A stretch of 64,000 nucleotides of DNA from the NCBI GenBank assembly GCA_964016885.1, contig OZ024753.1:42160001-42224000 (forward strand), written 5' to 3'. The DNA comes from Eledone cirrhosa (taxonomy: Eukaryota). Numbering within the stretch: the first letter of the stretch is position 1; each line of letters opens with the position of its first letter. Below the pieces are notes generated by a model. It saw only the letters and a list, made by a program, of their open reading frames with translations, made no database searches and had not been told where the DNA came from. Of the stretch, positions 4,421-52,832 are shown piece by piece. Position numbers and translations under genes: made by a program.

Positions 4421-5148
4421 TGTGTATCATAAACATCTTTTATCAAAACCATGATATGCACAAAGCATCAGGGAAGCACCTTAGATCTAAGAACTAGTAT
4501 CTTCTTAGTTACATTGTTATTCAACATAGGATCTTTCAAGATATCTTAATACCAGTGAAACCTGCAGAACTAAATAGGATCTTTCTAGAAGTTTTAATAC
4601 CTGTGATATACGTGGGGCTAAATAGGATCAAGATGTTTTAATACCTGTGATGTACGTAGGACTAAATCTTAGAGTATAACAGATAATACGCTCAGTAATT
4701 TCCTGGGTGTTGTCAGAGCAAGAAATGCCAAAAACTAGGTTTGTCAGTTTGCCAAACTGTAAGTTGAAATTATTTTATTTGAGAGAATGGGGTACCAACT
4801 GGGAGAAGAGGGTACATGTTGTAGTGCTAGCCTAGGGTGCTAATACATGAGGACACATTGTAATGCTAACACAGGGTGTTAAATACCCATGCACACATAG
4901 TAGAGGTAACCTAGGGTGCTAAATATCCAGGTAAACATTGTAAAGTTAGCAAAAGGGCGTTAAATACCCAGGTAAACATTGTAGAGCTAGCAAAGGGCAT
5001 TAAATACCCAGGTACATGTTGTTGTGCTAGCCTAGGGTGCAAAATACCCAAGTACACATTGTAGAATTACCCTAGAGTGCTAAATACCCAGGTACATATT
5101 GTGGAGCTAATTGAACAGAACTGCCAATGACCTGGGATGTTAATAGAG

Positions 5149-5360
5149 TGTGACTGCCAGTGAACTGAGATGGACAGTGAACTGTGACTGCCAGTGGTCT
5201 GTGACTGCCAGTGAACTGAGATGGACAGTGAACTGTGACTGCCAGTGGTCTGTGACTGCCAGTGAACTGAGATGGACAGTGAACTGTGACTGCCAGTGGT
5301 CTGTGACTGCCAGTGAACTGAGATGGACAGTGAACTGTGACTGCTAGTACACTGAGACTG
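5149..5360. repeat. 51-bp minisatellite (about 4 units)
   Basis: Unit TGACTGCCAGTGAACTGAGATGGACAGTGAACTGTGACTGCCAGTGGTCTG. Confidence 0.9.
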
Positions 5361-5929
5361 GCAATAGGTTGATCATCGTGATACAGAGTCAGTTGAGGGA
5401 GGGAGGGTGTCTCCTAATTTGGAAGGAAATGTATGACGTTGAGGAATAAAGGATGAGGATAGGAAATAGAATATGTAACCAATGACAACGACAAAGTATC
5501 ACCAACAATAATTGGACTTGTGTATCATAGAATCTTCTATGTTGGTCATGGAATATTCCATGTTGATCATGGAATCTTCCATGTTAGTCATGGAATATTC
5601 CATGTTGATCCAGGATTGGTCTTCTCAAGTTTTGGAAGATGTCATCAACAAGGAATAAATAGGGGTATCATCTTATGTAAAGATGGGCTGGCCTAAGGTG
5701 TAGGAAAATTCTAGACCTATTTAAACATGCATATACATGTGAATGTGTGTGTGTGTGTATGTGTGTGTGTGAATGTATGTATTTATGTATGTATGTATAT
5801 ATATGTTTGTGTGTGTGTGTATGCAGGTATGGGTGTTATTGCATGCATGGATCTGTATGTTTTGAGATATATATGTGTAAACATGTATATGTTTCTGTAT
5901 CTATACATGTGTATATCCAGATATTATAT

Positions 5930-6925
5930 GCTGAATTTCTGAAATGTTTTACATATATTTACAGTTCCATTAATGGACTGTACTTGCAACTTCTTAACTA
6001 GCCATGCCCTTTCTGGTTCTGTAAAACTCAGCTTCTCAAGATTTGTCTGGATGCAGTTACTAACATATCCCAGTGCTCCATTAATCACAGGTATAAATCT
6101 GAAAGTATAGTCAGGGTAGAGTATCTGCAGATTACTCATTAGTTCCTCATAGATATTCTCTTTTTCGCTAATCTTTGATATTATATTGGCATCTGCTGGA
6201 TAGCTAACTTCCACTACTGTGCATGCCTTCATTTCCCTGTCCCATATCATAATATCTGGTCTGTTATGCCTGCATTTTATTGGGGTTTTTACTGGAACAT
6301 TCCACCAGTAGTCTTGTATGTACATGTCCACCTCACTGCTGTAGCTTTTTAGATTTTTATTCTAATGACTATCTTTTCTATGGATTGCATTGTATAGTGT
6401 TTTGACCAATATATCATGCGTCATAGGTAGATAGTATTGTGTCGACATCTTTAGACAACTGTTTATGATATGGGTGACCTCCTCGCTGTTAATTCCACTA
6501 AGTCTGCATTTGATGTCACATCTAGGTGTTTTGCCTGCATCCCTATCTCTTTTGTACATCAGGTATTTCATAGTTATTTCCTTTTCTTGGATTGCAAAAA
6601 CATATCCTTCAAAGTGAGAGCCAATATAACAGTTGTTGGTCCAAGGTAGACTACTTTACTTATCTATATTACTCTCACTTTGAAGCTTTCTGGCAACATA
6701 GCCAGGCATGACTTTTTGCTGATAAGCATGCAGCTTTTTATTCATTGATTCATTGCGGACCAATTTCCCTGGGTGTGAGTTGTTGGTTATCATGCAGGGA
6801 GCATTTCTCAATGATGTTATCTGCCTCATATAGCAAACTTGTTCTATAGATGGGCTCCTCCTATACTTGGTGGTTCATAGATGTTGTCAGAGGGATATGA
6901 TGCAACACTCAAAGCCAACACGTGT
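5930..6925 (-). mobile_element. Degenerate RLE-endonuclease non-LTR retrotransposon, 3' part (R2/R4/NeSL-like)
   Basis: Broken ORFs give a CCHC-like motif (CRLSG...EEVTHIINSC...HD) followed by RPD...VEVSYP...KISEKENIY, the restriction-like endonuclease motif set; frameshifted. Confidence 0.8.
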
Positions 6926-6984
6926 TAAGGTGAAAATCAGCAATGGGTTTAGTGATGAATTAAGTGTACAGGCTTACTCCACAG

Positions 6985-7385
6985 CCCTCTCCTGTTTATT
7001 ATAGTCCTCCAGGCCATAACATAGGAATTTAAGACCAAATTGTCCATGGTAACTTCTGAATGGTGATGATCTTGCCCTTATAGCAGAATCCTTAAAAGAA
7101 TTAGAGAAGATGTTACACACATGGAAGCAAAACCTGGCATCAAAACTCCTCAAAGTAAACCAAGTAAAGACTGAAGTTTTAGTAAGTAAGGAAGTGGATA
7201 CAGTCCTACACCCTTCAGGGAGATGGCTATGTTTAATATACAGAAAAATGAGGAGTAGGTAGAAACTCCAAACTCCATATAGTGTACCCAGTATGGACAG
7301 TGGACACACAAAAGATGTAGTGGGATCACAGGTAGGCTGACAGAGAAGGTAAACTTTATATGAGACAGGTGCACAGAAATAGTCA
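6985..7385 (+). mobile_element. Old RTE-type LINE RT fragment
   Basis: Degenerate homolog of the element at 24612-25753 (LLFIIVLQAIT, CPW, DDLALIAES). Confidence 0.75.
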
Positions 7386-7799
7386 GGCCGATGCTAATCC
7401 TTGTTTCCATGGCATTAAGTAACAGAGTACAAGAGTCACCCCTGGACAGGACACCAGTCCATCATAGGGTTAAATCCCCAGCTATTGCTGCTGGTACTCA
7501 TTTTCAGCTGAGTATACTAGAGCAACATGAAATGAAGTGTTTTGCTCAAGAACACAACACGCAATCCAGTCGAGGAATCAAACCCACAACATTATGACCA
7601 CTAGACCACACATGAGGAAACTAATTAAGAAACATTTCACACCACAACATAGATACTACCAAATATTTAACACAAACACAATTACATGCCTTAAGGGACG
7701 GCATCAGATCTGACTACATCCAAACATTCTAACATCATTTTCATTATTTTTAATCGCCCTTCTGTATTGCTAGCCATCACTCCCTTTCATTCAAGTCAT

Positions 7800-8366
7800 T
7801 AAATAAAATACACCCAGTACACTCTGCAAAGTGGCAGTGTTAATACCACGATAAATTGCACCCAGTACACTCTGTAAACTGGTAGTGCTGATGTCATGAT
7901 AAATTGCACCCAGTACACTCTGCAAAGTGGCAGTGCTAATGTCACTATAACTTGCACCCAGTACACTCTGTAAACTGGCAGTGCTGATGTCATGATAAAT
8001 TGCACCCAGTACACTCTGCAAAGTGGCAGTGCTAATGTCACTATAACTTGCACCCAGTACACTCTGTAAACTGGCAGTGCTGATGTCATGATAAATTGTA
8101 TCCAGTACACTCTGCAAAGTGGCAGTGCTGATGTCATGATAAATTGCATCCAGTACACTCTGTAAACTGGCAGTGCTGATGTCATGATAAATTGCATCCA
8201 GTACACTCTGCAAAGTGGCAGTGCTGATGTCATGATAAATTGCACCCAGTACACTCTGCAAAGTGGCAGTGCTGATGTCATGATAAATTGCACCCAGTAC
8301 ACTCTGCAAAGTGGCAGTGCTGATACCACGATAAATTGCACCCAGTACACTCTGTGAAGTGGTTGG
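7800..8366. repeat. 48-bp SINE-derived minisatellite
   Basis: Unit CACCCAGTACACTCTG(C/T)AAA(G/C)TGGCAGTGCTGATGTCATGATAAATTG; relatives at 1210-1452, 53320-53470 and 53820-54060. Confidence 0.93.
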
Positions 8367-8844
8367 TTTCAGTAAAGACATTGAATTATATAAACTATAG
8401 AAAAGAGAGAAGGTAGGAGTGAGATGAAATCCTCCAGCTGTTTAAAATATGATAATGATGATGTGATGAGTAAAATATGATAATGATGATGACACATACT
8501 CATATAGATATATATACACATATACACCAAGCCGGCATGGCTAAGACGACTGTGAAACATGGTGTATATGTCTCAAGCACAGGACGGTGCTTATCCACGT
8601 TTCCTTGGTGTTAAGGAACTGAGAGTACATGACTTACCCCTGGATAGGACGTCAGTCTACCGCAGGGCAAAACTCCCAACTATTGTCGGTACTCAAGAAC
8701 ATAACAAATAACCCAGTCCAAGAATTGAAGCCGTGATATTATGTTCACCACCCTTACCACTAGGCCACACACCTTCACATTCTATATATATAGAGAGAGA
8801 GATAGAATAGATAGATAGATAGAGAGACAGAGACATTATATACA

Positions 8845-8892
<48 letters not shown>

Positions 8893-8894
<2 letters not shown>

Positions 8895-9071
8895 AAAAGG
8901 TTCAGGACCCCGACGACAGAGCTCAAGTCGTTTCGATGGCTATTTCCAGAATCGGCTTGAGCTCTGCCGTCGGGGTTCTGAACCTTTTCCTATTACCCAC
9001 TCTACTACCCAAAGTATCGAGTACTCTGGTGCGTTATGGTCCACCTGGTTCCTTACCACACTTCCTTCGTT
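8893..9071 (+). mobile_element. TA-embedded hairpin element, family A copy 1 (putative Penelope-like pLTR relic)
   Basis: Inverted repeat at 8893-8990 plus an ~80-nt tail ending CTTCCTTCGT, with (TA)n on both sides. Confidence 0.7.
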
Positions 9072-9301
9072 ATATATATATATATATATATAATTTTTGT
9101 CACCACTATATCATTTCAGTATTGGACATCTATCCACCCCTCTCCCACCCACCCCCCCACCCCTCACTCTCTAAACACACACACACATTTTCACAGAATT
9201 TTCGTTTTTATTTTCCCGGTGGTTGAACTTAAAATTCTCAAGTGTAACTATATTCAGTCTTGGTTTATTTAGCCTTTTTAGTTTTTCTGTTAGTTACGTC
9301 A

Positions 9302-9337
<36 letters not shown>

Positions 9338-9439
9338 GTATACGTGTGTCAAGCCGAGAAGGACCCGTCTAGCCCACGCAAGCATGGAAAAAACGGACGT
9401 AAAAACGATGGTGTGTGTATATATATATATATATATATA

Positions 9440-9640
9440 GGAACGAGTAGGACCCCGACGGCTGAGCTCAAGCCGTTTCGACGGCTAATTCTGGACTAAT
9501 TAGTCCAGAATTAGCCGTCGAAACGGCTTCAGCTCAGCCGTCGGGGTCCTACTCGTTCCTATTACCCACTCTACTACCCTAAGTATTGAGTACTTTGGTG
9601 CGTTATGGTCCACCTGGTTCCTTACCACATTTCCTTCGTT
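9440..9640 (+). mobile_element. Family A copy 2 (near-perfect palindrome plus tail)
   Basis: Palindrome at 9437-9562 centred at 9499/9500 with one mismatch; the tail runs to 9640. Confidence 0.75.
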
Positions 9641-9911
9641 ATATATATATATACACACACCATCGTTTTTACGTTCGTTCCAACGCACTTCTTGGTAGGA
9701 TACATAAAGCAGGATAAACATAATGATATTATATATATATTTATATATATATATATATATCATCATCATCGTTTAACGTCCATCTTCCACACTAGCATGG
9801 GTTAGACGGGAATTACCGAGTTCAGGCAAGATTGGTCGGCTGACCATGTCGGTAATTCCCGTCTAACCCATGCTAGTGTGGAAGATGGACGTTAAACGAT
9901 GATTATGATGA

Positions 9912-9964
<53 letters not shown>

Positions 9965-10150
9965 CATTATGTTTATCCTGCTTATGTATCCTACCAAGGA
10001 ATGCGTTGGAACAATTGTAAAGTATTAAATATTTTTACAACACTTAAGTGTCATCTCAATTTGTTTATATACATATATATATGCATACATCCACACATAC
10101 GCATACATATATATACACACATACACTGTGTGTGATTATGTATGTGTGTC

Positions 10151-10197
<47 letters not shown>

Positions 10198-10261
10198 CCG
10201 GGTTGAATCGGAGGTAACCACAGTAAGTAAGGTACTCAATACATGGCAGAGTATAAATGTT

Positions 10262-10334
10262 TTAATGTAGAAGCTTCCTGATGATTTCTCACGAATGAAA
10301 CAGTTCTAGTCCCGTAGAAGCTTTTCTACATTAA
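10262..10334 (+). ncRNA. Type I hammerhead-ribozyme-like motif
   Basis: AAGCTTC-CTGATGA(10278-84)-TTTCTCACGAAT-GAAA(10297-300)-C...G-TA(10316)-GAAGCTT. Stem I closes exactly on both sides of the core; stems II and III contain mismatches. Confidence 0.6.
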
Positions 10335-12144
10335 TATATAGATAGATAGATAGATAATAGATAGATATATTATCTGAAGTACGGAAGTGATTCACTCACT
10401 GTTCAGTTTCATATTTAAAAAATGCGATTGGTGATATTTGATATAATAAATATTTAAACTTTTACTTTTGGATTGAGTACTTTTTTTTACCGAGTGTTGT
10501 ACTCAAACGTATACACACATTATATATATATATATATATACGTGTGTACAGTGAGAGAGCAAGAAATATGTGCGAGATTTTGTGTCACTCAGGTATACGT
10601 GTTTCTTGGGAGATAGGTAGATATCAATATATATATACATACATAAATATATGTTAGAGAGAGAGAGAGAGAGAGAGTGCATGAGAGGGGGGAGAGTGCA
10701 TGAGAGGGGAAGAGAGAGCGAGGAGACTGAGGAAGAGAGAGTGCGTGAGAGGGAGAAAGAGAAAGTGCGTGAGAAAGAAAAAGAGAGGGGTGGGGTGGGA
10801 AGGAGGTGAGAGGGAGGAAGAGAGAGAGAGGGGGAGATAGGAGGAGAGAGAGAGAGAGATATGTGGTTGATGGTGACAAAAATGACACTAAAAGCAAGTG
10901 ATGTTGTGGCGATCATCGTTGACCGTGCGTATCAGCCCACATCGTGGGGTAAAAGACACTGCTATGAATGACACACACAACTGGTGAGTAATGTGTGTGT
11001 GTATTGGACCTCCGTCACTATCGACGACGAATGCTATTCTAGTGGTAGAAAATGTTACGAAATCACCTCACATACCCTGGGGTCCCAAATAATAAAGGGA
11101 TGAAATAATCGAAGGATCGGTGGGAAATTGTTAATTTTTCTAGGTTGTCTCCGTTGATTTTTCTTTTTAAAAACCAGAATTAGTCATTTAGTTTACATAT
11201 TGAGACCCCCCCCCCCCCAACACATCCTATTTATTTTATAACGTATGAGATTTCTAGTAATATACTTTGTTGTCATGTATAATGTTTTTTAATGTGTAAA
11301 GAAAATTAATTGCTGCAGGAATGCTGCTACTTAAAATAATATTTCGCCGTAGATAGATTAGCAAAATTTAATAAGCATAGAGGGGAGGGGTAATAAGAGC
11401 GGGGGTGTGAGAGGAAAAAATCTGAAAAATTAAGCGTGGGGGTAGGGACGGTTATTTGAGACCCGAGAGTACATCAATGATTTAATGAAATGAACCCGAA
11501 GGGTGATTAATTGAACTGTAATCAGGGGGCCCTTACTATATTTAAAGGGCACCGAGTTAATTTTGTTGCCAGCAGGACTGAAAGCACGAGCCCTCACTGT
11601 GTTTAACGGGTACAAAATCTATTTATTTGCTGCTATAAATAATATGCCAGTGTCAGGGAGACCCCATGCAAGGTTTTAACTCTTAACATCCTGTAATGAT
11701 TAAGAGTAAAATATCTTGAGATATGTTTAATTCAAATGTTTATAGAATCTTTACTAGTAGACTGATACTGCAAATATTGACATCAATCTGAGTAAATATT
11801 TTTTTTTATTTTAAATGTGATGCAGTCCTAGTAAAGTTTTTTTTTTTTCAACTTTTCACGAATGTCTTGCTAATGTAGTTTCATTTGGTTTATTAATTCA
11901 AATGTTTGCAGTATTAGAGTAGAAACTTTAATTATTAATATAATGCAGTCATAGGACTGTTGTATAATAATACTTTCAAAAGAATGTCTTGCTAATAATA
12001 TAACAGAGGACGTTAATAGTGAAATCTGCCCATGATAGTGAAGTCCGAGCTGTTTGCGGATGTAAATAAATATTATAAACTATGACAGTTAGAACAGCAA
12101 CAGGAATGACTGTCAACGCGAGTGGATAGATAATACAAACGTAC

Positions 12145-12264
12145 CTGTTGCCAACGATCTTCTAACGATGGTTGCGATGAAAAATATCCTGTGTCATGCA
12201 CAACCTGAAGTTCTCGGAATATATTTCCACTTGGTAGTATATCCATAGCAATATCTTCGGGCAT
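12145..12264 (-). CDS. KLF6/7: Kruppel-like factor 6/7 (luna-like), first coding exon; the rest of the gene lies beyond position 1
   Basis: Translates (MPEDIA)[34 protein letters not shown], matching the KLF6/KLF7/luna N-terminal activation domain. It ends in a phase-0 donor CAG|GTACGT at 12145/12144. The conserved Met is at 12246 (102-nt exon, same junction as vertebrate KLF6 exon 1); an in-frame ATG lies upstream at 12264. Confidence 0.93.
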
Positions 12265-12569
12265 TTGAACGAAGTGTGTTAGAAGAGGCTGCTGCTATAT
12301 AGATTAATACCAAAATGACACTTGGTGCAGACGAAAGAGCAGGGTTTGTTAAGAATAGGAAGATACTGTACGGGACAGAATGTGTTGTTGTGTTGTTGGA
12401 GAAGAAGAAGGTGTTGGTGTTGATGTTATTGGTGACGTTAGATAGCAGGTACCCGGAGGAAAATATAGACATAAGGGTGGAAAGAGTGAGGGGAGTTAGA
12501 AAGAGACAAGGCAGACACGGTTATGAATAGAGCAGATTTACGCTTCGCTCAAATGATCACACACTGGGG

Positions 12570-12750
12570 CAATTAGATCACGTGTAAAACATACAATTTA
12601 CAACTGTAAAAAAAAATGTCTATTATACCAACCAATGAAATTAAACCTTACATAATATTGTCAATTTCATGTCCAATCAACGAGGCTTAACTTTCTTTTA
12701 TTTTTATTTTTATTTATTTTATTTTTACAAGACGTAAATTTGCATAATTT
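12570..12750 (-). promoter_or_regulatory. Putative KLF6/7 proximal promoter
   Basis: Non-repetitive region upstream of the exon with an E-box CACGTG (about 12579), two CCAAT boxes (about 12632 and 12673) and an octamer ATTTGCAT (12738-12745). Motif-level evidence only. Confidence 0.4.
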
Positions 12751-13709
12751 CCCTAACTTGAAAGACTATTTTAAACATCTTTCTATACTTTTTACTTTCT
12801 CTATTTTATTGAATCTCTCTCTCTTTCTTTAGCCCTCTCTCTCTCTCTTTCACTCGTCTTTCTCTTTTCATAGCCCCCCCCCCCCGCCAGTGTCTCTATT
12901 TCAATTTCTTTCTCTTTACCATCTCTCTCTCTCTCGTCTCTCTTATCTTTATTTTTATTGTATCACTATCTCTCTCTCTCTTTCACAGTTTCACTCGTCT
13001 TTCTCTTTTCATAGCCCCCCCCCCTCTCTCTGCCAGTGTCTCTATTTCAATTTCTTTCTCTTTACCATCTCTCTCACGCTCTGCAATTCTCTCTCTCGTC
13101 TCTCTTATCTTTAATTTACTATTTCTCTCTTTTTTTATACCATCTCTCTCTCGTCTCTTATCTTTATTTTTATTGTATCACTATCTCTCTCTCTCTTTCA
13201 CTGTTTCACTCGTCTTTCTCTTTTCATAGCCCCCCCCCCTCTCTCTGCCAGTGTCTCTATTTCAATTTCTTTCTCTTTACCATCTCTCTCTCTCTCTCGT
13301 CTCTCTTATCTTTATTTTACTATTTCTCTCTTTTTTTTATTGTATCACTATCTCTCTCTCTCTCTCCTGTCACTATTTCTCTGTCTCTCTCTATTATCAT
13401 TTCTCTCACGAGCCCTCTCTTTCTCACACACACCGTCTGTTTCTCGGCCCCGTCTCTCTCCCTCACCATCTTCCTTTCTTTTTCTCCTTCACAGTCTCTC
13501 TCTCCCTCACCACCTTCTTCCTTTCTTTTTCTCCCTCATACAGTCTCTCTCGCTCTCCCTCACCGCCTCTCTCCCACACAGTCTCTCTCTCTCCTCACCT
13601 TCTCTCTCTCCACTACCACACAACCAACTTCATCTAACATTATATAGCTGCAGGTTGTTTGATCGTCACCAGAGGCAGACATCCACTGTGGCTGACTCAT
13701 TGCATACAT

Positions 13710-14845
13710 ACAGTAGTAGTATTGGTAGTAGTGGTAATAATAGTGGTGATGGTAGTAGTAGTAATGGTGGTAGTAGTAGTAATGGTGGTAGCGGTAATGG
13801 TAGTAATAGTAGTGGTAGTAATAGTGGTGGTAATAATAGCAGTAGTAGTGGAGGTAGTAATAGTAGCAGCAGTAGTAGTGGTGGTGGTAGTAATAGTAAT
13901 AGTAGAAGCAACAGTACTAGTAGTAATTGTAGTAGTAGCAGTAGCAGTGGTGGTATCTACCACAGCTTCCTTTCATATCAACACGATATGTTAAGTCTGT
14001 GTGTGATGATACGTTTCCATGACAACCACTCAATGACGGATTTGCAACATAATGCTGTTGTTGTTGTTCGTGAGATGATGGTGGTGGTATTGGTGGTGGT
14101 GCTGTTGGTGGTGGTATTGGTGGTGATGTTGTCGGTGAGATGGTGGTAGTGATGGTGGTGATGTTGGAAGTGTTGTCGGTGAGATAGTGGTGGTGGTGGT
14201 GGTGGTAGTCGACGTAGTGGTAGTGATGGTGGTGATGTTGGAAGTGTTGTCGGTGAGATAGTGGTGGTGGTGGTGGTGGTAGTGATGGTGGTGTTGTTGG
14301 TAATGTTGTCGGTGAGATAGTGGTGGTGGTGGTGGTGGTAGTGATGGTGGTGATGTTGGTAATGTTGTCGGTGAGATAGTGGTGGTGGTGGTGGTGGTAG
14401 TGATGGTGGTGATGTTGGTAGTGTTGTCGGTGAGATAGTGGTGGTGGTGGTGGTGGTAGTGATGGTGGTGATGTTGGTAGTGTTGTCGGTGAGATAGTGG
14501 TGGTGGTGGTGGTGGTAGTCGACGTAGTGGTAGTGATGGTGGTGATGTTGGAAGTGTTGTCGGTGAGATAGTGGTGGTGGTGGTGGTGGTAGTGATGGTG
14601 GTGTTGTCGGTGAGATAGTGGTGGTGGTGGTGGTGGTAGTCGACGTAGTGGTAGTGATGGTGGTGATGTTGTCGGTGAGATAGCGGTGGTGGTGGTGGTG
14701 GTAGTCGACGTAGTGATGGTGGTAATGTTGTCGGTGAGATAGCGGTGGTGGTGGTGGTAGTCGACGTAGTGATGGTGGTAGGGTTGTTATAGTGCGGCGG
14801 CGGTGGTGGTGTTAGTAATAATGATGATGATGATGATGATGATGT
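13710..14845. repeat. (AGT/GGT/GAT)n triplet-rich low complexity with an ~60-bp higher-order unit
   Basis: Recurring GTTGTCGGTGAGATAGTGG(TGG)n. Confidence 0.9.
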
Positions 14846-15172
14846 AGTATTGCTGGTGGTAGTACTAGTAGTGTTGTTGGGTTCTTTCTCTCCAACATCG
14901 TTCGTGTGTTTCAGATGAAATTATCTACATTACGGTCTCAAACAACTTATTTCGGCGGCACACTTTTTTGCCTTTTATTTTGAATTTATCTCACCATACC
15001 CCTGCTCCCACCCTCATCGCTGCTGCTTCAGAAATATGCTATCTATTTCTTATATACACACACAAGCATATGCTATTTCTTTTATTTATTTATATATATA
15101 TGGGGGTTTCTTCTCTGAAGATCAGCTGACTAGCTCTCCTGAGAATTTCTTAACACAATATATACATATATA

Positions 15173-15298
15173 GGAAAAAGTATGACCCCGACGGCAGAGC
15201 TCAAGCCGTTTCGACGGCTGTTTCTGGACTACTACCCTAAGTATTGAGTACTCTGGTGCGTTATGGTCCATTTGGTTCCTTACCACAATTCCTTTGTT
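15173..15298 (+). mobile_element. Family A copy 3 (internally deleted)
   Basis: The left arm is joined directly to the tail; TA-flanked. A one-arm fragment (copy 4) lies at 15908-15960. Confidence 0.7.
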
Positions 15299-15393
15299 AT
15301 ATATATCACGATAAATTAACGGAGGCATAGGCCCTCGCTATTCCCTGTAAATAATGTGCTCAAAGGAGAAGAGATCCTGAGCTCTTTTTCAAC

Positions 15394-15431
<38 letters not shown>

Positions 15432-15461
15432 CATATACCTCACGTTGGTGCAATAATAACT

Positions 15462-15497
<36 letters not shown>

Positions 15498-16197
15498 AGT
15501 TATTATTGCACCAACGTGAGGTATATGATTTTTAATGCAATGAAATATCTATGATCGTTGGCAAATCACTGATGAGGGACACATTTTATAACATGTTATC
15601 CATGTGCAACCTGCAGTATTCTTCTCCCCATTTTTTCATATATATATATATATATATATTTATTAAAATAACAGATTAAATATTTGCTCTACGGTTCTTA
15701 TATATTTATCCTTATCGAGCCCTCTTTGGATTTTAGTCTTCAAATTTATTATTATTACTATATATATATATTTATTAAAATAACAGATTAAAGTTTAAGC
15801 AAAGAATCGCTGCTTTCACCCTTAACGGGATCTTGTGAAACTAAAAATTTGGATTTTAGTCTTCAAATTTATTATTATTACTATATATATATATAATATA
15901 TATATAGGGAAAAGAGTCGAGACCCCGACGGCTGAGCTCTGGCTGTTTCGACAGCTAGATCCGAACATACATACATACACATATATATGTTATCTATTTC
16001 TTTTATTGAAATTATATATATATATACGCCATCATGTTTTCGCTTCGTATCTGGAAACAAATTATTTTTTAGTTTTCAAACCAATTTCTACAATTGTTAA
16101 TAGTCTTCAATATATAACTTATATACAAACTGATTGTCAAAACTTATATATAAACATAAGACAGGACCTTATTGTCATCATTATTATTATTTATAAT

Positions 16198-16380
16198 TGG
16201 TGTGGATTGGCAGTATCGGTAGAGGGTCGGACGCCATGCTTTGACGCATAGAGTTACGGCCCTTGCATTCTGAGTTCAAATCCCGCCGAGGTTGACTTTG
16301 CCTTTCATACTTACGGTCGATAAAATAAAGTACCAGTAATGCACTGCTGGCCTTGTGCCAAAAGTAGAAACAATTATTAT
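16198..16380 (+). mobile_element. tRNA-like SINE, family 2
   Basis: GGCAGTATCGGTAGAG...GAGTTCAAATCCCGCCGAGG...GTCGATAAAATAAAGTACCAG. Further copies lie near 20697, 28700, 35320 (minus), 46750 (minus), 50225, 55147 and 59685. Confidence 0.8.
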
Positions 16381-16519
16381 TATTTATAATTGTTTACTTT
16401 TGGCACAAGGTCAACAATTATCCCAAAGTACCAGTAATGCACTGGGATAATTATATAACTGTCAAGTCTGAAGGAAGCCTGGGGGAACCCGCACGAGTCG
16501 GGGGGGGGGTCTTTAATGA

Positions 16520-16553
<34 letters not shown>

Positions 16554-16554
<1 letters not shown>

Positions 16555-16683
16555 ACAAAGGAAGTGTGGTAAGGAACCAGGTGGACCATAACGCACCAGA
16601 GTACTCGATACTATGGGTAGTAGAGTGGGTAATAAGAAAAGAGCCAGGACCCCACGGCTGAGCTCCGGTCCTGACTCTTTTCC
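16554..16683 (-). mobile_element. Family A copy 5
   Basis: Tail plus a shortened hairpin; TA-flanked. Confidence 0.7.
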
Positions 16684-16727
16684 TATATATACAGACATAC
16701 ATATACATATATATATACATACATATA

Positions 16728-16775
<48 letters not shown>

Positions 16776-16797
16776 CATATATATATACATACATATA

Positions 16798-16845
<48 letters not shown>

Positions 16846-17371
16846 CTGTCGTGGGGGTAAAAGAGTGAAATGATAGAGGGTACTCGGAAATAGTTGTAAA
16901 CCTAGGGGACAGGCCCCGGTATAACGAGGATCGATTGAAAGGTTCATCGGTTGACCAAGATACTCTCATGGAATGACCAAATGAGGTGTTTTTTCAGCAT
17001 AGTCCCTGGAAAGAAACAACGCAGTTATTAATAAGAAGAGTTGAAATTAATGCATGCAAGATTTCACAGCTCTAGCATCTCTCCTTCATAGTCAGTCTAT
17101 GACCCGTAACAATACATATACATTTATCAATATATACCCTCGTAATAGTATCGTATGTATATATCCATGTATATCATGACTCATACACTGATCACTTTCC
17201 TGACATTTGTAACTTTGATCAGTTGTGCACCCGAGCACTGTACACAATAATTTCATATTATTATATTATTATTATACACACTACAATACATGTAGTACAA
17301 ATATATTTATCAATATATAACCTCCTAATTATACTGTATATACATACACACACGCGCATATATATATACAC

Positions 17372-17465
17372 ATGGTGTCCCCAAAATATGTATACATATT
17401 TTGATTAATTATACAGGCAATATTTATTAGAATGGTGTTGAAGTGTGTATACATCTTTTGGGGAC

Positions 17466-17470
<5 letters not shown>
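17372..17470. mobile_element. Tc1/mariner-type MITE
   Basis: TIRs GGTGTCCCCAAAATATGTATACA and TGTATACATCTTTTGGGGACACC in a TA context; related copy at about 46062-46141. Confidence 0.7.
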
Positions 17471-17526
<56 letters not shown>

Positions 17527-18307
17527 ATATGTGACAATCAGCCCAACACACCCACACGTCAGACAGTGCAGTTTAACACAAACACATATGTATATATATG
17601 TGTATGCATATATATATATATATATATATAGCATACACATGGCAATTTTCCCATGGTTTATATACACACATACACACACGTGTACGTACGCGCTCGCGCA
17701 CGTGGATATTGTTTTGTCCCGGGACGAACATGAATAGCACAGATCAATAATCAAACGCATATTGGCTAATATCAATCATTTTAATATATAGTGAGAGAGA
17801 GAGAGGGGGCCGTTTTTTCCAACGTGTTCTTTCCTTATTAAAAATAGTATCATGTGATTTGAGGGAGATTTGGCTGCTATTTCTAGCTGGTGAAAATATA
17901 AGCATCGTTGAGGGTTCGTGCGATTATGCTTACAATTATTGGTTTGAGCAAAGTAAAGAGTACTCAATACATGCAGCAATAAAGATAAGGTAATCCTTCG
18001 TTTTAAGATCACTGACAACTTCCGGTAATTTCCGTGAGCGTAAAACATAACAAAAACATTATCACTATAATCATAATCTAGAATGTATCTCTGCTATATA
18101 TATATATATATGTTAGGTAATTCCAAAGGAAAAAAGAGTGCTCTATGTATAGAACAGAGCTGTTTAATTAGAAAGTGAACAACACTAAATATAACTACTC
18201 CATAACTGTATATTAATATTGTCTGGGATCCAGAAACCTTTGGTAATGGAGTAGTTATATTTTGTGTTGTTCACTTTCTAAATATATATATATATATATA
18301 TATATAT

Positions 18308-18473
18308 AACGAAGGAAATGTGGTAAGGAACCAGATGGACCATAACGCACCAAAGTACTCAATACTTAGGGTAGTAGAGTGGGTAATAGGAACAAGTATG
18401 AACCCGACGGCTAATTCTGGACACAATTAGCCGTCGAAACGGCTTGAGCTCTGCCGTCGGGGTCATACTTGTT

Positions 18474-18476
<3 letters not shown>
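18308..18476 (-). mobile_element. Family A copy 6
   Basis: Tail plus a hairpin that folds as a three-way junction; TA-flanked. Confidence 0.7.
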
Positions 18477-18506
<30 letters not shown>

Positions 18507-18508
<2 letters not shown>

Positions 18509-18837
18509 TCATCATCATTTTACGTCCGCTTTTCCCTGCTTGCAAGGGTGGGACGGGAACTGATTCTGGCTTGATTTCTACAGCTGGATGCCCTTCCTAA
18601 CACCAACCTCATTTACAGTGAGTGCTGGGTGCTTTTTTTCCGTGGCACCTCCACGTCCACTTTGCAGTGGAATGATATGGACCCCAGTCCCTATCATCTC
18701 ATTTCTACAGCTGAGTAAACTGGAGCAATGTGAAATAAAGTGTCTTGCTCAAGGAAATAACACATCACTCGGTCTGAGAATAGAACTCACCTTTCGATTG
18801 CAAGGCCAATGCTCTAACCACTAAGCCATGTGCCTCC
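18507..18837 (-). mobile_element. SINE family 1 copy
   Basis: Near-identical reverse complement of 19861-20185. Confidence 0.9.
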
Positions 18838-19602
18838 ATGGTATATATATATAAAGTTTGATGGTTCACCACTGGATAAAACTGGTCATTCCGTATAGTT
18901 AATCATGATATTATAGTGGAAAAAGCACTCAACGTAATGTAACTTTGATGTTGAATCCTGTTGTTGGTGCAGGAATGGAAAATATTATGGTGCTTTTTCA
19001 ACTAGAAAACTTTAAGGAAATTTCACCAGTCCGGCCTCGTCATTTTTATCAAAATAATATATATATATATATAATATATATATATAATATAAGACGAAAA
19101 ATCTGTGATGCATCTGAAATCAATTTATTGTGTGTTACAATTGTTTCGCCAGCGGACAGCTCGAGACACGATCATTGCATGGATCTTGTCTGACTCTGGA
19201 CCTGCAGGCTCGTCGGACACGTCAGGCAAGATCCACACAATGATCGCGTCTCGAGCTGTCTGCCAGGGAAACAATTGTAACACACAATAAATTGAGTTCA
19301 GATGCATCACTGATTTTTCATTTTCTATTATATCATACTCTGCTCTGTAAGAGCATAGAGTGCTCAACCGGCCTACCGCCTATGGAAGCATCTTAGCTAC
19401 CATCAGACACAGAGAGAGAGAGAGACTTTACCCTTTCTTCCTCTTCTCACTCTCCTCTATCTTTCTATTCTTTTATTTCTCATTCTCTCATTTGATGACA
19501 GACTAACATCCGAAATGTTAAGACTTTTATCCTAACAAGCATTAAACTAATATATATCTTCATTGTACTATATCGTTATACAATGACATGTTTTTTTTGG
19601 AA

Positions 19603-19640
<38 letters not shown>

Positions 19641-19642
<2 letters not shown>

Positions 19643-19838
19643 CGAAGGAAATGTGGTAAGGAACCAGGTGGACCATAACGCACCAAAGTACTCAATACTT
19701 AGGGTAGTAGAGTGGGTAATAGGAACCAATAAGACCCCGACGGCTGAGCTCAAGCCGTTTCGACGGCTAATTCTGGACTCAAATTAGAATTAGCCGTCGA
19801 AACGGCTTGAGCTCAGCCGTCGGGGTCTTATTGGTTCC
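19641..19838 (-). mobile_element. Family A copy 7
   Basis: Tail plus an ~55-bp perfect inverted repeat with a short spacer; TA-flanked. Confidence 0.75.
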
Positions 19839-20814: not shown

Positions 20815-21854
20815 AAAGTAATGCACTGGGGGTCTATAAAATAAAGTACCAGTAATGCACTGGGGGTCTATAAAATAAAGTACCAGTAATGCACTGTGGG
20901 TTGATAAAATAAAGTACCAGTAATGCACTGGGGTTGATAAAATAAAGTACCAGTAATGCACTAGGGTTGATAGACTAAAGTACCAGTAATGCACTGGGGT
21001 TGATAGACTAAAGTACCATTAATGCACTGGGGTTGATAGACTAAAGTACCAGTAATGCACTGGGGTTGATAGACTAAAGTACCAGTAATGCACTAGGGTT
21101 GATAGACTAAAGTACCAGTAATGCACTAGGGTTGATAGACTAAAGTACCAGTAATGCACTGGGGTTGATAGACTAAAGTACCAGTAATGCACTGGGGTTG
21201 ATAGACTAAAGTACCAGTAATGCACTAGGGCTGATAGACTAAAGTACCAGTAATGCACTGGGGTTGATAGACTAAAGTACCATTAATGCACTGGGGTTGA
21301 TAGACTAAAGTACCAGTAATGCACTGGGGTTGATAGACTAAAGTACCAGTAATGCACTAGGGTTGATAGACTAAAGTACCAGTAATGCACTAGGGCTGAT
21401 AGACTAAAGTACCAGTAATGCACTGGGGTTGATAGACTAAAGTACCATTAATGCACTAGGGTTGATAGACTAAAGTACCATTAATGCACTGGGGTTGATA
21501 GACTAAAGTACCAGTAATGCACTAGGGTTGATAGACTAAAGTACCAGTAATGCACTAGGGTTGATAGACTAAAGTACCAGTAATGCACTGGGGTTGATAG
21601 ACTAAAGTACCATTAATGCACTAGGGCTGATAGACTAAAGTACCAGTAATGCACTGGGGTTGATAGACTAAAGTACCAGTAATGCACTAGGGTTGATAGA
21701 CTAAAGTACCAGTAATGCACTAGGGCTGATAGACTAAAGTACCAGTAATGCACTGGGGTTGATAGACTAAAGTACCATTAATGCACTGGGGTTGATAGAC
21801 TAAAGTACCAGTAATGCACTAGGGCTGATAGACTAAAGTACCAGTAATGCACTG
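20815..21854. repeat. 33-bp minisatellite (about 31 units) expanded inside a family-2 SINE
   Basis: Unit AGTAATGCACTGGGGTTGATAGACTAAAGTACC; the SINE head (about 20697) and tail (about 21855-21925) flank the array. Confidence 0.95.
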
Positions 21855-24062: not shown

Positions 24063-25753
24063 CATCATCATCATTTTACGTCCGCTTTTCCCTGCTTGCA
24101 AGGGTGGGACAGGTCTTATTCAGCACAGCATCTCTCCACTCGTCACGGTCCTCCGTGAACTTCAATGATCTTTGGTCTGTTCTCACCACCTCCGCCCATG
24201 TTTTACGTGGTCTACCTCTACGTCTTCCTATCTCAAGGTACAGCTTGATGTCGTCTGCGTACTTTAGTACTGTGGCATTCCTTAAGTTGGCATCTATGTC
24301 ATTAATATATGCCACAAACAAAAGGGGGCCAAGAACAGATCCCTGAGGTACACCAGATGACATCTCACATGGTGAGGAATGCTGTCCCAGAACCGTGACT
24401 ACCTCTCTTCGACTGAGAATGAAGGACTTCAACCAGTTAAAAAGATCATCCTTCACACCCATTGCAGAGAGTTTTGCCATAAGCCTTTTGTGTGGCACAG
24501 AATTGAAGGCCTTCGCAAAGTCAAGGTAAACAACATCCACCCATGAGCCGCCATCAGTGATCCGGGTGATGTCCTCAAGAAACTAATTTCATTATTATTA
24601 TCATTTAACTGGCATTTCCTGGCACTTCTTCACCCGTCGGTCATCCTCCATGCGCATCACATGTCCATACCACCTCAGTCTCCTCTCCCGTACACTACAT
24701 TCTATCCCTCTCAGACAGTTTCTCTCTCAACACATTTATGCTGGGTTGTTCACGCACATCCAACGGAGCATGCTTGCCTCATTTCTCTCCAGCCGTCGCA
24801 TATCCTCTGCAGTTGCTGCCCATGTCTCACTACCATGCAGCAACGCGCTCCTCACACAGGCATCATACAACTGGCCTTTTGTACGCAGGGAGAAACCCTT
24901 CTTCGTCAACAGAGGAAGCAGCTCCCTAAACTTCTTCCAACCCGTCCTTATTCTAGATACTATGGCCTCGGAACACCCTCCTCCCATGCTAATCTGATCT
25001 CCTAGGTACCGGAAGCTATCCACCACTTCTATAGCGCCCTCCTGCATTTGAAAAATGTGTCTATCAATGCGACTTCTACTGTCTAATTTCCCTGTACATC
25101 TACTGCATACGTATTTCTCCCTACCTGTTAGTTTTCCTGCTATCCCGCTACATCCCTTGTGTACCCAGGATCTGCATTGTGTGCATTTTATAGAATTTAT
25201 GCCAGTTCCCTTTCTGCATATCGAACATGGCCATTTCCCTGACGGAATCAGAGTTTTGTCCTCTTTTCTACTCATCAACACTTTTGTCTTAGCTAGGTTC
25301 ACTCTCAGTCCTCTTGCTTCCAACTGCTGTTTCCATAGCCAGAATTTATTCTCTAGCTCCTCTACTGATTCTGCTATAAGAACCAGATCGTCGGCATAGA
25401 GAAGTTCCCATGGACAGCCAGTCTTAAACTCCTCTGTTATGGCTTGGAGGACTATAATGAACAAGAGCGGGCTGAGGACCGAACCTTGATGTACTCCTAC
25501 TTGTATCTGGAATTCCTCACTAAACTCCATTCCTACCCTGACTTTACTGAGAGTACCTCTGTACAAAGTTTGCACTGTCCTCACAAGCCATTCCTCAACA
25601 CCTAGCTTCCTTAGGGACCACCAGATGACAGATCGGAGTACCCTATCAAAGGCCTTCTCTAGGTTAACAAAGGCTAAGTATAGTGGCTTATTTTTCTCTA
25701 AGAACCTCTCTTGCAATTGTCTCACCAAGAGGGCATCTGTTGTACTCTTCCCA
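24063..25753 (-). mobile_element. 5'-truncated RTE-clade LINE, interrupted by a CR1 fragment
   Basis: ORF 24736-25753 has AFV(N)LEKAFD, GVHQGSVLSP, LYADD, a Cys-rich insert and LLHGSETW. The C-terminal GRPRKTW and a (ATG)n tail lie at 24063-24228. Confidence 0.92.
24229..24582 (-). mobile_element. CR1-clade LINE RT fragment
   Basis: DVVYLDFAKAF, SGVPQGSVLGPLLFVAYIND and KYADDIKL. Confidence 0.9.
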
Positions 25754-26080
25754 ATATATATATATATATTGGGAAGAGTACAACAGATGCCCTCTTCTTG
25801 GTGAGACAATTGGCTGAGTGGTTAGAGAATTGGATTCGCAATCGTAAGGTTGTGAGTTCGATTCCTGGACCAGGCGATGCGTTATGTCCTTGAGCAAGAC
25901 ACTTTATTTCACGTTGCTCCTTCTACCTGGAGTTGCGACCGATAGATAGTATTAGCAACTGGAAAGACCAACGGAAACATTGTTCCCTACGTCCGATTTG
26001 ACGAAAGTCGATCGTTCCTTTATATATATATATATATGTATATATACATGTATATATATGTATATATATATATATATGTG

Positions 26081-26116
<36 letters not shown>

Positions 26117-26442
26117 AATATATATATGTGTATATGTGTATATATATATGTGTATATGTGTATATATATATGTGTATATATGTATATATACATATATATA
26201 TATGTGTATATATACATATATATGTATATATACATATATATATGTATGTATATATATATATATATATATATACAGTAAAGTGGTGGTGGTGCCATGATAA
26301 AATGCACCCAGTCCACGCCGTCGGGTGGGTGGGATGGTACCAATAGAAACCAAACCCAGTAGAAGCTGTGCAGTGGTTGACCTGAGGAAGGGCATCCAGC
26401 CCTAGAAACTCTACCAATATAAAACAGATGGGAAACATGGTT

Positions 26443-27162
26443 ACCGTGAACGTGACCTGGGCATTATGGTCAGCAGCAATTTGCGTTGGACGAAGCACGT
26501 CTCTAAAATTGTCAAGAGGGCCGAGGGTGTCTTAGCATCACTCAGCAAGACCTTTGTCAGCCACTCTCCAGATATCTATTTAAGGCTGTACATGGCTATG
26601 GTGCGACCACACTTAGAATTTGCATCATCAGTCTGGAGCCCCTATCTTGCTCAGAACATTGACTGCCTGGAAACTGTTCAGAGACGTGCAACCAAGCGAA
26701 TACCCTCCATCAGGCATCTACCATACTCTGAGCGCCTTGCTTCCCTGGGCATGGATACACTGAAGCTCCGACGCCTGGCAACTGACTTGGTAAACACCCA
26801 CAAAATGATTAACCATCTTGCCAACAACAACCCTGAGTACCTTTTTGATTTCCATGTGTCTAACACACGTGGGCATGCCCACAAAGTCAGAAAACAGCAC
26901 AGCTCCCATGACTTTCGGAAACATTTTTTCACGCTCAGAGTTGCTGAAGCATGGAACAAACTACCTGCATCAGTTGTTAGCTGTCGAGACACTGCATCCT
27001 TTAAGGCCTCCATGCTTCCCGAGATCCGCCAACACTACAGCTAACACATACACACATGTACTTCCCTGACATTTGTGTATTATTCTATGTACTATACATA
27101 CACCTTTGACGAGTTGTAGTGCACCTGAGCACTTTACACAATAATTTCATTATTATTATTAT
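26443..27162 (+). mobile_element. CR1-clade LINE 3' end
   Basis: ERDLGIMV...LYMAMVRPHLEF...QRRATK...TRGH...FFTLRV...WNKLP, then 3' UTR and (ATT)n tail. The same tail recurs near 1060, 17220, 29580, 29705 and 58130 (minus). Confidence 0.92.
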
Positions 27163-39563: not shown

Positions 39564-39934
39564 CAATTTAATTTGTTTATTGTTCACCACTGCCGCCACC
39601 GATCAATCGATCGATCGTGTGACCAGCACCACACCACAGCACTGCTACACCACCACAACACTGCTACAACACCACCACACCACTACAACACAAGAAAGGC
39701 AGTGGAGCAAGGAGGGGAAAAAAAAAAAAACAAAGCACCTCCAACCTGGAAAAGAGAAACAAATAAAGAACAGAATTAGTTTCATGAACTGATCATGTAT
39801 GAACACCACCACACCATTACATCACCATCACACTGCTACACCACAACACCAACAGCACCACTACCACCACATTGCTACCCCACTATCATCATCACACTGT
39901 AAAGTGGTTGGCATTACAGAGTGGGCCAGGTGCT

Positions 39935-41570
39935 TTTTGTTGTGTCACCAACACAACCACTTAACAGGGTGGACTGAGTACTTTATGTTGTGTCACCACT
40001 GCAACCACTTTACAGAGTGGACTGAGTACTTTTTGTTGTGTCACCAACGTGACCACTTTACAGGGTGGACTGAGTACTTTTTGTTGTGTCACCAATACAA
40101 CCACTTTACAGGGTGGACTGAGTACTTTATGTTGTGACACCACTGCAACCACTTTACAGGGTGGACTGAGTACTTTTTGTTGTGTCACCAATGCAACCAC
40201 TTTACAGGGTGGACTGAGTACTTTATGTTGTGTCACTAATGCAACCACTTTACAGGGTGGACTGAGTACTTTTTGTTGTCACCAACGTGACCACTTTACA
40301 GGGTGGACTGAGTACTTTCTTGTGTCACCAATGCAACCACTTTACAGGGTGACTGAGTACTTTTTGTTGTGTCACCAATACAACCACTTTACAGGGTGAC
40401 TGAGTACTTTTTGTTGTGTCACCAATACAACCACTTTACAGGGTGGACTGAGTACTTTTTGTTGTGTCACCAATACAACCACTTTACAAGGTGACAGTAC
40501 TTTTTGTTGTGTCACCAATACAACTACTTTACAGGGTGACTGAGTACTTTTTGTTGTGTCACCAATACAACCACTTTACAGGGTGACTGAGTACTTTTTG
40601 TTGTGTCACCAATACAACCACTTTACAGGGTGGACTGAGTACTTTATGTTGTGTCACCAATACAACCACTTGACAGGGTGGACTGAGTACTTTATGTTGT
40701 GTCACCAATGCAACCACTTTACAGGGTGGACTGAGTACTTTATGTTGTGTCACCAATACAACCACTTGACAGGGTGGACTGAGTACTTTATGTTGTGTCA
40801 CCAATGCAACCACTTTACAGGGTGGACTGAGTACTTTATGTTGTGTCACCAATACAACCACTTTACAGGGTGGACTGAGTACTTTATGTTGTGTCACCAA
40901 TACAACCACTTGACAGGGTGGACTGAGTACTTTATGTTGTGTCACCAATGCAACCACTTTACAGGGTGGACTGAGTACTTTATGTTGTGTCACCAATACA
41001 ACCACTTTACAGGGTGGACTGAGTACTTTTTGTTGTGTCACCAATACAACCACTTTACAGGGTGGACTGAGTACTTTATGTTGTGTCACCAATACAACCA
41101 CTTGACAGGGTGGACTGAGTACTTTATGTTGTGTCACCAATGCAACCACTTTACAGGGTGGACTGAGTACTTTATGTTGTGTCACCAATACAACTACTTT
41201 ACAGGGTGGACTGAGTACTTTATGTTGTCACCAATGCAACCACTTTACAGGGTGGACTGAGTACTTTATGTTGTGTCACCAACACAACCACTTGACAGGG
41301 TGGACTGAGTACTTTATGTTGTGTCACCAATGCAACCACTTTACAGGGTGGACTGAGTACTTTTTGTTGTGTCACCAACACAACCACTTGACAGGGTGGA
41401 CTGAGTACTTTATGTTGTGTCACCAATGCAACCACTTTACAGGGTGGATTGAATACTTTATGTTGTGTCACCAATACAACCACTTTACAGGGTGGACTGA
41501 GTACTTTTTGTTGTGTCACCAATACAACCACTTGACAGGGTGGACTAGATATTTTTTGTTGTGTCACCAA
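39935..41570. repeat. 48-bp minisatellite (about 34 units)
   Basis: Unit CAACCACTTTACAGGGTGGACTGAGTACTTTATGTTGTGTCACCAATA, related to the SINE segment CAACCACTTTACAGAGTG. Confidence 0.95.
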
Positions 41571-42395: not shown

Positions 42396-42445
<50 letters not shown>

Positions 42446-42599
42446 TGTAATAAACAACATAAGGCAATTATTCCATTTACCAGTGGTTTCTTAAAAGCAA
42501 AAAATTTTGCTTTCAATCCTCAGAATGAAAAAATCTTGGTCTGTTTATTGAATTTAGAGCACTCTTTTTTCCTGGACTTTTCCGACAGAATTACTTCAT

Positions 42600-42627
<28 letters not shown>

Positions 42628-42630
<3 letters not shown>

Positions 42631-52661: not shown

Positions 52662-52832
52662 TATATATACATGGGAATATTCTTTTAAAGATGTAGTAAG
52701 TTACAGTTTTAAATCTGTAAATCTCTTAGTATCTTAGAGATGATCCATCATATTTTACTAATTTGATTGTTGTACCTTAGTAGACAACGGGGTCATCTCT
52801 GTCTAAATGTGATTATATTTTTCTATTTCCAG

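Follow-up and report, generated by a model that had tools for sequence, protein, structure and literature searches.

We analysed a 64,000-nt stretch of the Eledone cirrhosa genome (contig OZ024753.1, positions 42,160,001 to 42,224,000; hereafter the window), which is AT-rich (GC content 36.6%) and contains many (TA)n tracts, short interspersed elements (SINEs) and relics of long interspersed elements (LINEs). Within 11 kb of it lies a family of short elements that are embedded in TA repeats and carry half of a hammerhead ribozyme. The most likely origin of the family is the outermost 3′ end of a Hydra-type Penelope-like retroelement (PLE), comprising the 3′ half of the hammerhead and the tail.

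Copies of the family and their hammerhead halves

A search across the window with blastn (word size 7) returned seven copies, the remaining matches being at most 17 nt long. All seven start positions given in an earlier reading of the sequence (the original prediction) were correct, as was its statement that the window holds no others. The copies and two landmarks of copy 2 are as follows.

8893–9072 (+): copy 1, subfamily A; inverted arm, shortened direct arm, tail
9440–9640 (+): copy 2, subfamily B; perfect 63-nt arms (9437–9562), tail
9520–9548 (+): hammerhead 3′ half of copy 2; GAAA, stem III, GUC and a stem I strand, CUGANGA not upstream
9568–9594 (+): bulged tail hairpin of copy 2, RCTC-stem-loop-stem-NN-GAGY-RCT, starting 5 nt past the end point of the inverted arm
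15173–15298 (+): copy 3; inverted arm fused to a clipped tail, an inversion without duplication, with CT microhomology
15907–15966 (+): copy 4, subfamily A; inverted arm only, no direct arm or tail
16554–16683 (−): copy 5, subfamily A; short arms, GAAA lost, tail with hairpin at 16626–16600
18308–18475 (−): copy 6, subfamily B; direct arm 23 nt short between direct repeats, tail hairpin at 18380–18354
19641–19838 (−): copy 7, subfamily B; the same rare linker variant in both arms (19729, 19831), tail hairpin at 19713–19687

In the orientation of the element, the layout is (TA)n, inverted arm, direct arm, 79-nt tail and (TA)n. TA dinucleotide repeats flank each of the seven copies, in agreement with the predicted TA targeting. 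The direct arm runs from approximately TAGTCC through GAAAC, a stem of 5–6 bp, GUC, GGGGTC and a linker of 7–9 nt to TTCC-TAT, after which the tail follows; the inverted arm starts in every case at the TAT that ends the direct arm. Both arms, with differing centres, are present in copies 1, 2, 5, 6 and 7. The earlier claim that an inverted copy precedes the direct segment thus applies to five of seven copies, where an inverted 5′-truncated copy is duplicated, and does not extend to copy 3, which is inverted without duplication, or to copy 4, which has that arm alone. The predicted constant tail of about 80 nt is present once, and never twice, in six of the seven copies (0–7 differences per 69 nt) and is missing from copy 4. 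The linker is distinct in each of the seven copies, which fall into two subfamilies. The ends of the element (GGAA... on the left, ...TTCGTTA on the right) are not mutual inverted repeats, and only the first 125 nt are palindromic. The 40-nt flanks of copy 2 (9392–9431 and 9640–9679, a SINE-like end with TA) pair as inverted repeats (97.5%), so that copy 2 is the centre of a larger TA-centred palindrome.

A GAAAC-stem-UC arrangement with a stem of 5–6 bp was found on seven arms of five copies (8934−, 9479−, 9520+, 15212−, 18436+, 19761− and 19799+). The GAAA-stem III-GUC half described earlier therefore stands for these arms; in copy 4 the stem is mismatched and copy 5 has no GAAA. The upstream CUGANGA that the original prediction proposed to look for was not there: no exact match lies within 150 nt upstream of the seven GAAAC halves, where a single site with one mismatch was found. 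Only the 3′ half of a canonical type I hammerhead is kept near the 3′ end, and the ribozyme of the family copies is predicted to be dead, without self-cleavage. Inspection of both strands by eye also led us to reject type II and type III arrangements, since no core follows stem I.

Copy 6 had been described as a three-stem junction lacking only CUGANGA. The junction does score close to the minimum free energy (MFE) fold (−50.6 versus −51.3 kcal/mol), but the MFE fold buries the GAAA. The junction is best read as what was left after 23 nt were deleted between two direct AGCCGTC repeats and not as a nearly complete ribozyme.

Tail hairpin and Hydra-type elements

A bulged hairpin in the tail was recognized by eye when published 3′ ends of Hydra elements were compared with the tail of the family. 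A descriptor of this hairpin gave 10 matches at nine loci of the window, against 0.05 in 100 shuffles. Five of the loci are family tails and four belong to unrelated relics (10252, 18160, 19337 and 49687), each of which adjoins a hammerhead core or 3′ half; three of the four had shaped the descriptor, while that at 49687 was found by the scan only. Since the MFE of the tail is no better than that of shuffled sequences (z about −0.2) and subfamily B prefers an alternative hairpin, the bulged hairpin rests on comparison and not on energy. By eye, the same hairpin is present 38–47 nt past the cleavage site in the published ends of Hydra-2_Amil, Hydra-2_Ajap and, in degenerate form, Hydra-1_Crog, and at the start of Hydra-1_Ajap. 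In the available part of the PMC8557442 supplement, where line breaks may mask matches, six 10-mers of the 3′ side of the hairpin occur five times, at three Hydra ends and two unrelated places. From these occurrences the hairpin looks Hydra-specific, which falls short of proof.

Metagenome contigs were scanned with a pattern consisting of GAAAC, 35–65 nt and the hairpin, CUGANGA being left out of the pattern. The scan listed 120 loci of about 860 estimated (from 9 of 64 parts), and 21 matches were too close to a contig edge for evaluation. CUGANGA was present within 45 nt upstream of GAAAC in 52 of the 99 evaluable matches, compared to 7 of 593 control sites, and 51 of these 52 also had stem III and UH. 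The distance from GAAAC to the hairpin is 43 nt in the family and 40–64 nt in the core-positive loci. Three hairpin pairs were kept in 32, 32 and 33 of 34 distinct hairpins, with exchange between A-T and G-C and between C-G and T-A, versus 16, 12 and 18 of 21 in putative chance matches. The family's own tail pattern had no match in metagenome and viral contigs. The lone viral match of the hairpin pattern (L001) lies inside a gene and was rejected as chance.

Two of the contigs carry an intact open reading frame (ORF) of Hydra type together with the hammerhead and the tail hairpin. The ORF at L014:647–2770 (707 aa) ends 112 nt before GAAAC and contains RWK, DKT and CxCX5C, the published marks of Hydra elements; that at L025:298–2421 matches it over its whole length. 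Altogether 16 of 121 loci match the L014 ORF, and 40 loci have short flanks only. Pfam and NCBIfam gave no name for the L014 ORF; the ESM Atlas neighbours of its protein (0.96–0.99) contain GIY-YIG or RVT_1 in some of their members.

An inverted arm was found in 20 of 64 hammerhead-like matches with enough flank, and in none of them did it include the hairpin. In 16 of 22 loci the outer end of the arm precedes the hairpin by 2–6 nt, and in copies 2 and 7 by 5 nt; the inner end lies 0–34 nt upstream of GAAAC, the corresponding distances in copies 2 and 7 being 20 and 13 nt. Part of CUGAUGA is lost in several metagenome direct arms (L016, L083, L089, L090, L095). Because the tail hairpin scan leads to upstream CUGANGA, to PLE ORFs and to the same arm geometry, the half-hammerhead is very likely, on this sequence comparison, a genuine remnant of the 3′ end of a Hydra-like PLE. 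The PLE origin and the tail-to-tail inverted arms put forward in the original prediction are in this way supported.

As also stated there, no PLE ORF with reverse transcriptase (RT) and GIY-YIG domains is visible in the window: tblastn with the L014 ORF gave only a match at 7621–7710 with an E value of 0.048. A short frame at 7608–7710 (+), 1.2 kb from copy 1, resembles a segment of the Hydra PLE ORF (41% over 34 aa) and may be a chance match. The family behaves like a Hydra PLE end; it is not classed as a Hydra PLE, since neither an ORF with RT, C-terminal GIY-YIG, RWK, DKT and CxCX5C, in or beside the copies, nor a full core was found.

Abundance, insertion and alternative explanations

Reads or contigs matching copy 7 were taken from four of 23 listed runs (X1, X4, X21 and X5). 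Same-species runs gave 20,560 contigs (X1) and 535 contigs (X4); in X21, a restriction-site-associated DNA (RAD) run with the same species label, 25,527 of 12.47 million reads matched, and 44 contigs matched in X5, which is from a second organism. Of the matching reads, 49% continue into unlike sequence, and several variants come near the maximum possible number of start places. The depth summed over copy 7 is 3.8 million, which is not a copy number; divided by single-locus depths of 7–25 and by the largest possible contig overlap, 31, it would correspond to about 5,000–17,000 locus equivalents. The family is dispersed and very abundant, also in the second organism. The loose ends of the matches have (TA)n at both outer ends genome-wide, and both outer ends are fixed. 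The tail is the most constant and deepest part of the matched reads and contigs, the arms less so.

The cluster of seven copies in 11 kb is real and exceeds chance (P about 0.001 relative to 83 merged TA tracts and 0.0001 relative to a uniform distribution, the interval having been picked afterwards). The local spread suggested in the original prediction is not upheld, given the dispersal of the family and the fact that no linker is shared by two copies. The seven differing linkers in two subfamilies argue for independent arrivals, and their main variant letters are common genome-wide. Per-copy hypervariability of the 7-nt linker was rejected, the linker representing a few subfamily haplotypes. 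Nor is a general PLE hot spot at the locus supported: three of five clear relics of other families lie inside the interval (P 0.25 relative to TA tracts, 0.04 relative to length).

The origin of the inverted arms can be followed in rare variants. The letters of copy 7 at 19729 and at its mirror position 19831 each account for less than 1% of the summed contig depth in X1 and are present in both arms; in X21 reads, the majority letter at these two sites reaches 66–98%. The mirrored rare variant argues that a single template served for the two arms when the copy was inserted or not long before. The later point changes of copies 1, 2, 5 and 6 each affect one arm only, and those of copy 1 are of CpG type. 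Among reads, arm-to-tail inversions of the copy 3 type recur at three other breakpoints and the arm begins at (TA)n-GGAA in 863 cases, and in some contigs (TA)n is joined straight to the direct arm. At the AATT sites, 4,812 RAD molecules end on the side of the tail and 2,526 on the opposite side, which suggests, with biased sampling, that about half of the copies carry an inverted arm. The upstream continuation of the loose ends extends stem II in 93 X1 contigs (agreement 0.53) and one X5 contig, and for subfamily A in 1004 X21 reads.

We propose that a PLE RT/GIY-YIG protein writes the copies into (TA)n tracts. Its endonuclease would cut both strands in a TA tract; one cut would prime reverse transcription at the end of the tail and the other at the internal TAT beside the hairpin, or, alternatively to the second priming, a single complementary DNA (cDNA) may fold back and end at TAT. 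Both cDNAs would stop in the stem II region of the ribozyme, 13–20 nt upstream of GAAA, and be joined head to head. The inverted arm would be made anew at each insertion, with the catalytic CUGANGA left out. The centre of copy 7 reads as a stem II of 10–13 bp with an 11-nt loop, and stem II is 12 bp long in the hammerheads at 42523 and 49792 described below; a cDNA stop or fold-back in such a long stem would drop CUGANGA. The hairpin may be a protein-binding mark that sets the internal start.

As the source of the copies we slightly favour a short non-autonomous master that propagates itself; the chance that an autonomous parent was repeatedly truncated is somewhat below even. We put forward only tentatively the stronger proposal that the family is a self-propagating non-autonomous PLE parasite of about 140 nt, with thousands to tens of thousands of copies, which has discarded the core and in which recruitment of the PLE protein and the position of the internal start depend on the hairpin and not on cleavage. 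If so, the hairpin would be conserved across Hydra PLEs of distant marine animals, and insertion would scatter perfect 60-bp palindromes through the genome as possible substrates of A-to-I hyper-editing. In octopus, the proportion of near-perfect double-stranded RNA loci is unusually high, as is that of hyper-editing (PMC5625713). The roles of hammerheads in PLEs and the tail features read by the PLE protein are open questions in the available parts of PMC8557442 and PMC11167929. A very abundant family without a catalytic core is a natural test of whether cleavage is dispensable, and a hairpin 5 nt from the internal start offers a precise site for mutation in an in vitro assay, in which the intact ORFs of L014 and L025 could be used. 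The hairpin is also a simple search key for Hydra PLE ends, as 52 of 99 matches led to complete cores.

PLE insertions in general contain an inverted 5′-truncated copy and a tail at one end (PMC8557442). Hydra-clade PLEs have type I hammerheads and (TA)n targets and are known in Octopus, including Hydra-1_Obim (PMC8557442, Craig et al. 2021). The family shares with them the (TA)n insertion, the hammerhead near the 3′ end, the inverted 5′-truncated copy and the one-sided tail; it differs in having no ORF, no CUGANGA and a longer, GC-rich stem III, and its stems do not match those of Hydra-1_oBim in the sequence available. Its 79-nt tail compares with 30–40 nt quoted for PLEs and 60–67 nt in the metagenome families. 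In Poseidon PAc of Anolis, both target strands are cut and extended, RT starts at two sites bounding the tail, and ribozyme mutants still insert, hammerhead cleavage being dispensable in vitro (PMC11167929, Frangieh et al. 2024). The two start sites and the stem loop at a start site resemble the arrangement proposed here; Poseidon PAc, however, belongs to a different clade and has a tail of 30–40 nt inside the ORF start. Minimal hammerhead ribozymes from truncated PLEs (Cervera and De la Pena 2014, PMC4209133) likewise occur as thousands of short dispersed copies, some in opposite-strand pairs, with a long stem II and a palindromic stem III loop, but are defined in the available text by an intact core, so that the family, with half a hammerhead, would escape that descriptor. 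MRC1 of Chlamydomonas, a non-autonomous PLE, is also non-coding and contains the PLE 3′ end only; unlike the family, for which non-autonomy is a candidate reading, it belongs to the Chlamys clade and forms head-to-tail arrays of pseudo-long terminal repeats without a canonical hammerhead (PMC8557442).

Several observations weigh against assigning the family to Hydra-type PLEs. The half hammerhead alone is weak evidence, because GAAA-stem-UH halves with at least 5 bp arise dozens of times by chance in the window. Its stem III (6 bp, 7-nt loop) exceeds in length that of the Hydra hammerheads in print, and an alternative hairpin competes with it (pair probability 0.28–0.34). A search of Rfam gave no hammerhead for copy 6 (13 matches) or among the 150 of 301 window matches listed, which are microRNA artefacts of palindromes. 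A covariance model built from 20 loci outside the window, and partly circular because the scan pattern was derived from these motifs, placed named relics in all of its top 12 of 26 window matches and scored the family tails weakly (E 0.1–0.6). The metagenome matches are not independent: there are 21 distinct stem III 13-mers and four families dominate. The fourth hairpin pair, unconstrained by the pattern, is kept in 21 of 34 hairpins versus 10 of 21 and is not clearly above the chance set. The family and the Hydra-type loci have the hairpin motif and geometry in common, whereas direct nucleotide matching of copy 2 to the metagenome loci by blastn was insignificant (best E 0.03). No ORF was found in or beside any family copy, and no parent ORF was found in the window. 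There is no exact CUGANGA in the 30 letters of upstream continuation (X1, X5, subfamily A) among the loose ends listed, and no 7-nt insertion among the 12 of 20 indels listed; either the source had lost its core, as a non-autonomous master would, or the parent is too rare among the listed loose ends. Finally, Poseidon PAc initiates without target homology (PMC11167929), while both ends of the family are at TA.

An alternative account of the arms is that a palindromic master is copied whole in the manner of a SINE, with a single cDNA extending from the tail across the two arms; slippage deletions would later have varied the centres, and template switching would have matched the arms. The junctions of copies 6 and 3, with direct repeats or microhomology typical of palindrome deletion, and the fixed outer ends are what it would produce. 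We consider it unlikely: the rare variant is mirrored in copy 7, yet the CpG-type changes of copy 1 and the single changes of copies 2, 5 and 6 have not been homogenized, and unrelated Hydra families have the same arm geometry beside intact parents. This alternative alters the origin of the arms only and leaves PLE ancestry unaffected.

The original prediction had named an ordinary miniature inverted-repeat transposable element (MITE) as the case that would overturn it. A MITE or other DNA fold-back element inserting at TA, with GAAAC...GUC arising by chance from nested short palindromes, is very improbable and is not supported. Elements with Tc1/mariner-like terminal inverted repeats (presumably of that family) do lie in TA tracts of the window, for example at 17358–17484, chance halves are frequent, as noted, and the arm contains three copies of one 6-mer. 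However, the two ends of the element are not inverted repeats, the tail and not the arms is its most constant and deepest part, copies 3 and 4 each lack one arm, and complete hammerheads as well as PLE ORFs are connected with the family by way of the tail hairpin. An active, retrozyme-like element with a ribozyme, spreading locally via circular RNA, as the cluster and tandem head-to-tail copies (38 reads, 2 starts) might suggest, can be dismissed almost entirely, since CUGANGA and tandem units with a complete type I hammerhead are absent and the seven copies have seven linkers made of variants common genome-wide. Non-LTR retrozymes, which are likewise non-coding PLE-end derivatives with a type I hammerhead, form tandem arrays of units each with a complete type I ribozyme (bioRxiv 10.64898/2026.07.22.740005), whereas the family consists of dispersed inverted monomers with a broken core.

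For the Hydra-type PLE end, the insertion architecture is already described; the family is of interest mainly for the tail hairpin and the loss of the core. In the literature, Repbase and Dfam being outside the scope, we found no description of the sequence of the family, of octopus hammerheads of this sort, of a PLE tail hairpin at a fixed distance from the arm end or of octopus palindromic TA elements. The available part of a paper on O. vulgaris repeats lists active Penelope families and no such element (PMC13282606).

Other relics and features of the window

Five relics unrelated to the family were located.

10194–10335 (−): (TA)n relic of the same architecture; inverted arm with CUGAUGA...GAAA (10278, +), tail hairpin 10252, covariance model E 7e-5
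18113–18284 (−): (TA)n relic; hammerhead 3′ half in the inverted arm, tail hairpin 18160
19082–19400 (+): 120-nt arms, GAAAC-stem III-UA, mutated core, tail hairpin 19337; 3′ end approximate
42442–42600 (+): (TA)n relic; complete type I hammerhead pattern at 42523 (−), degenerate tail hairpin (+)
49598–49805 (−): CUGAUGA...GAAA at 49792 with a 12-bp stem II, tail hairpin 49687; ends in (TA)n

The window thus holds complete hammerhead cores that belong to other families and were overlooked in the original prediction, at 10278 (+), 42523 (−) and 49792 (−). The hammerhead at 42523–42480 (−) has a 7-bp stem I, CUGAGGA, a 12-bp stem II, GAAA, an ACCA/UGGU stem III as in Hydra-1_oBim and a GUA site. 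Within the window it is, judged by these elements, the strongest candidate for ribozyme activity. Rfam returned no hammerhead for 42430–42610, and for 10262–10306 it gave Hammerhead_3 only at E 8.8.

In the relics at 10194–10335, 18113–18284 and 42442–42600, the direct arm starts within 3 nt of the predicted cleavage site and the core or 3′ half lies in the inverted arm. Cleaved RNA could have served as the template, or the arms could have been joined via stem I; the two are not distinguishable. Degenerate relics with a GTATTGAGTAC-like tail motif lie beside TA tracts at 10345–10515, which includes an inverted GAAAC-stem half, and at 17880–18095. At 42253–42285 (+), CUGAUGA...GAAA is accompanied by a palindromic stem III, of the minimal hammerhead type, and by no good stem I.

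TA-centred or TA-anchored inverted duplications of unrelated sequence were observed at 15429–15530, 25694–25829, 9668–10021 and 42626–42736, their sources being genomic flank, the truncated 5′ end of an RT ORF and SINE pieces. It seems that fold-back copying seeded by (TA)n tracts is a general tendency.

A frame at 12246–12145 (−) matches what we take to be the N-terminus of KLF6/7, which was not confirmed by database, and two near-perfect palindromic copies on the intron side of this putative first exon are candidate hyper-editing substrates. Exons at 52813–53244 and 61450–62892 presumably belong to frataxin and AF10/MLLT10, respectively; a short frataxin-like piece gave no database match. 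We further take 5924–6361 (−) to be an ORF relic of a LINE with a restriction-like endonuclease and 24076–27044 to hold RT-bearing LINE ORF relics. Related 48-nt minisatellites derived from one SINE segment occupy 1211–1432, 7803–8362, 39933–41570 and 53339–54061, and further arrays have units of 33 nt (20817–21854) and 51 nt (44657–45668).

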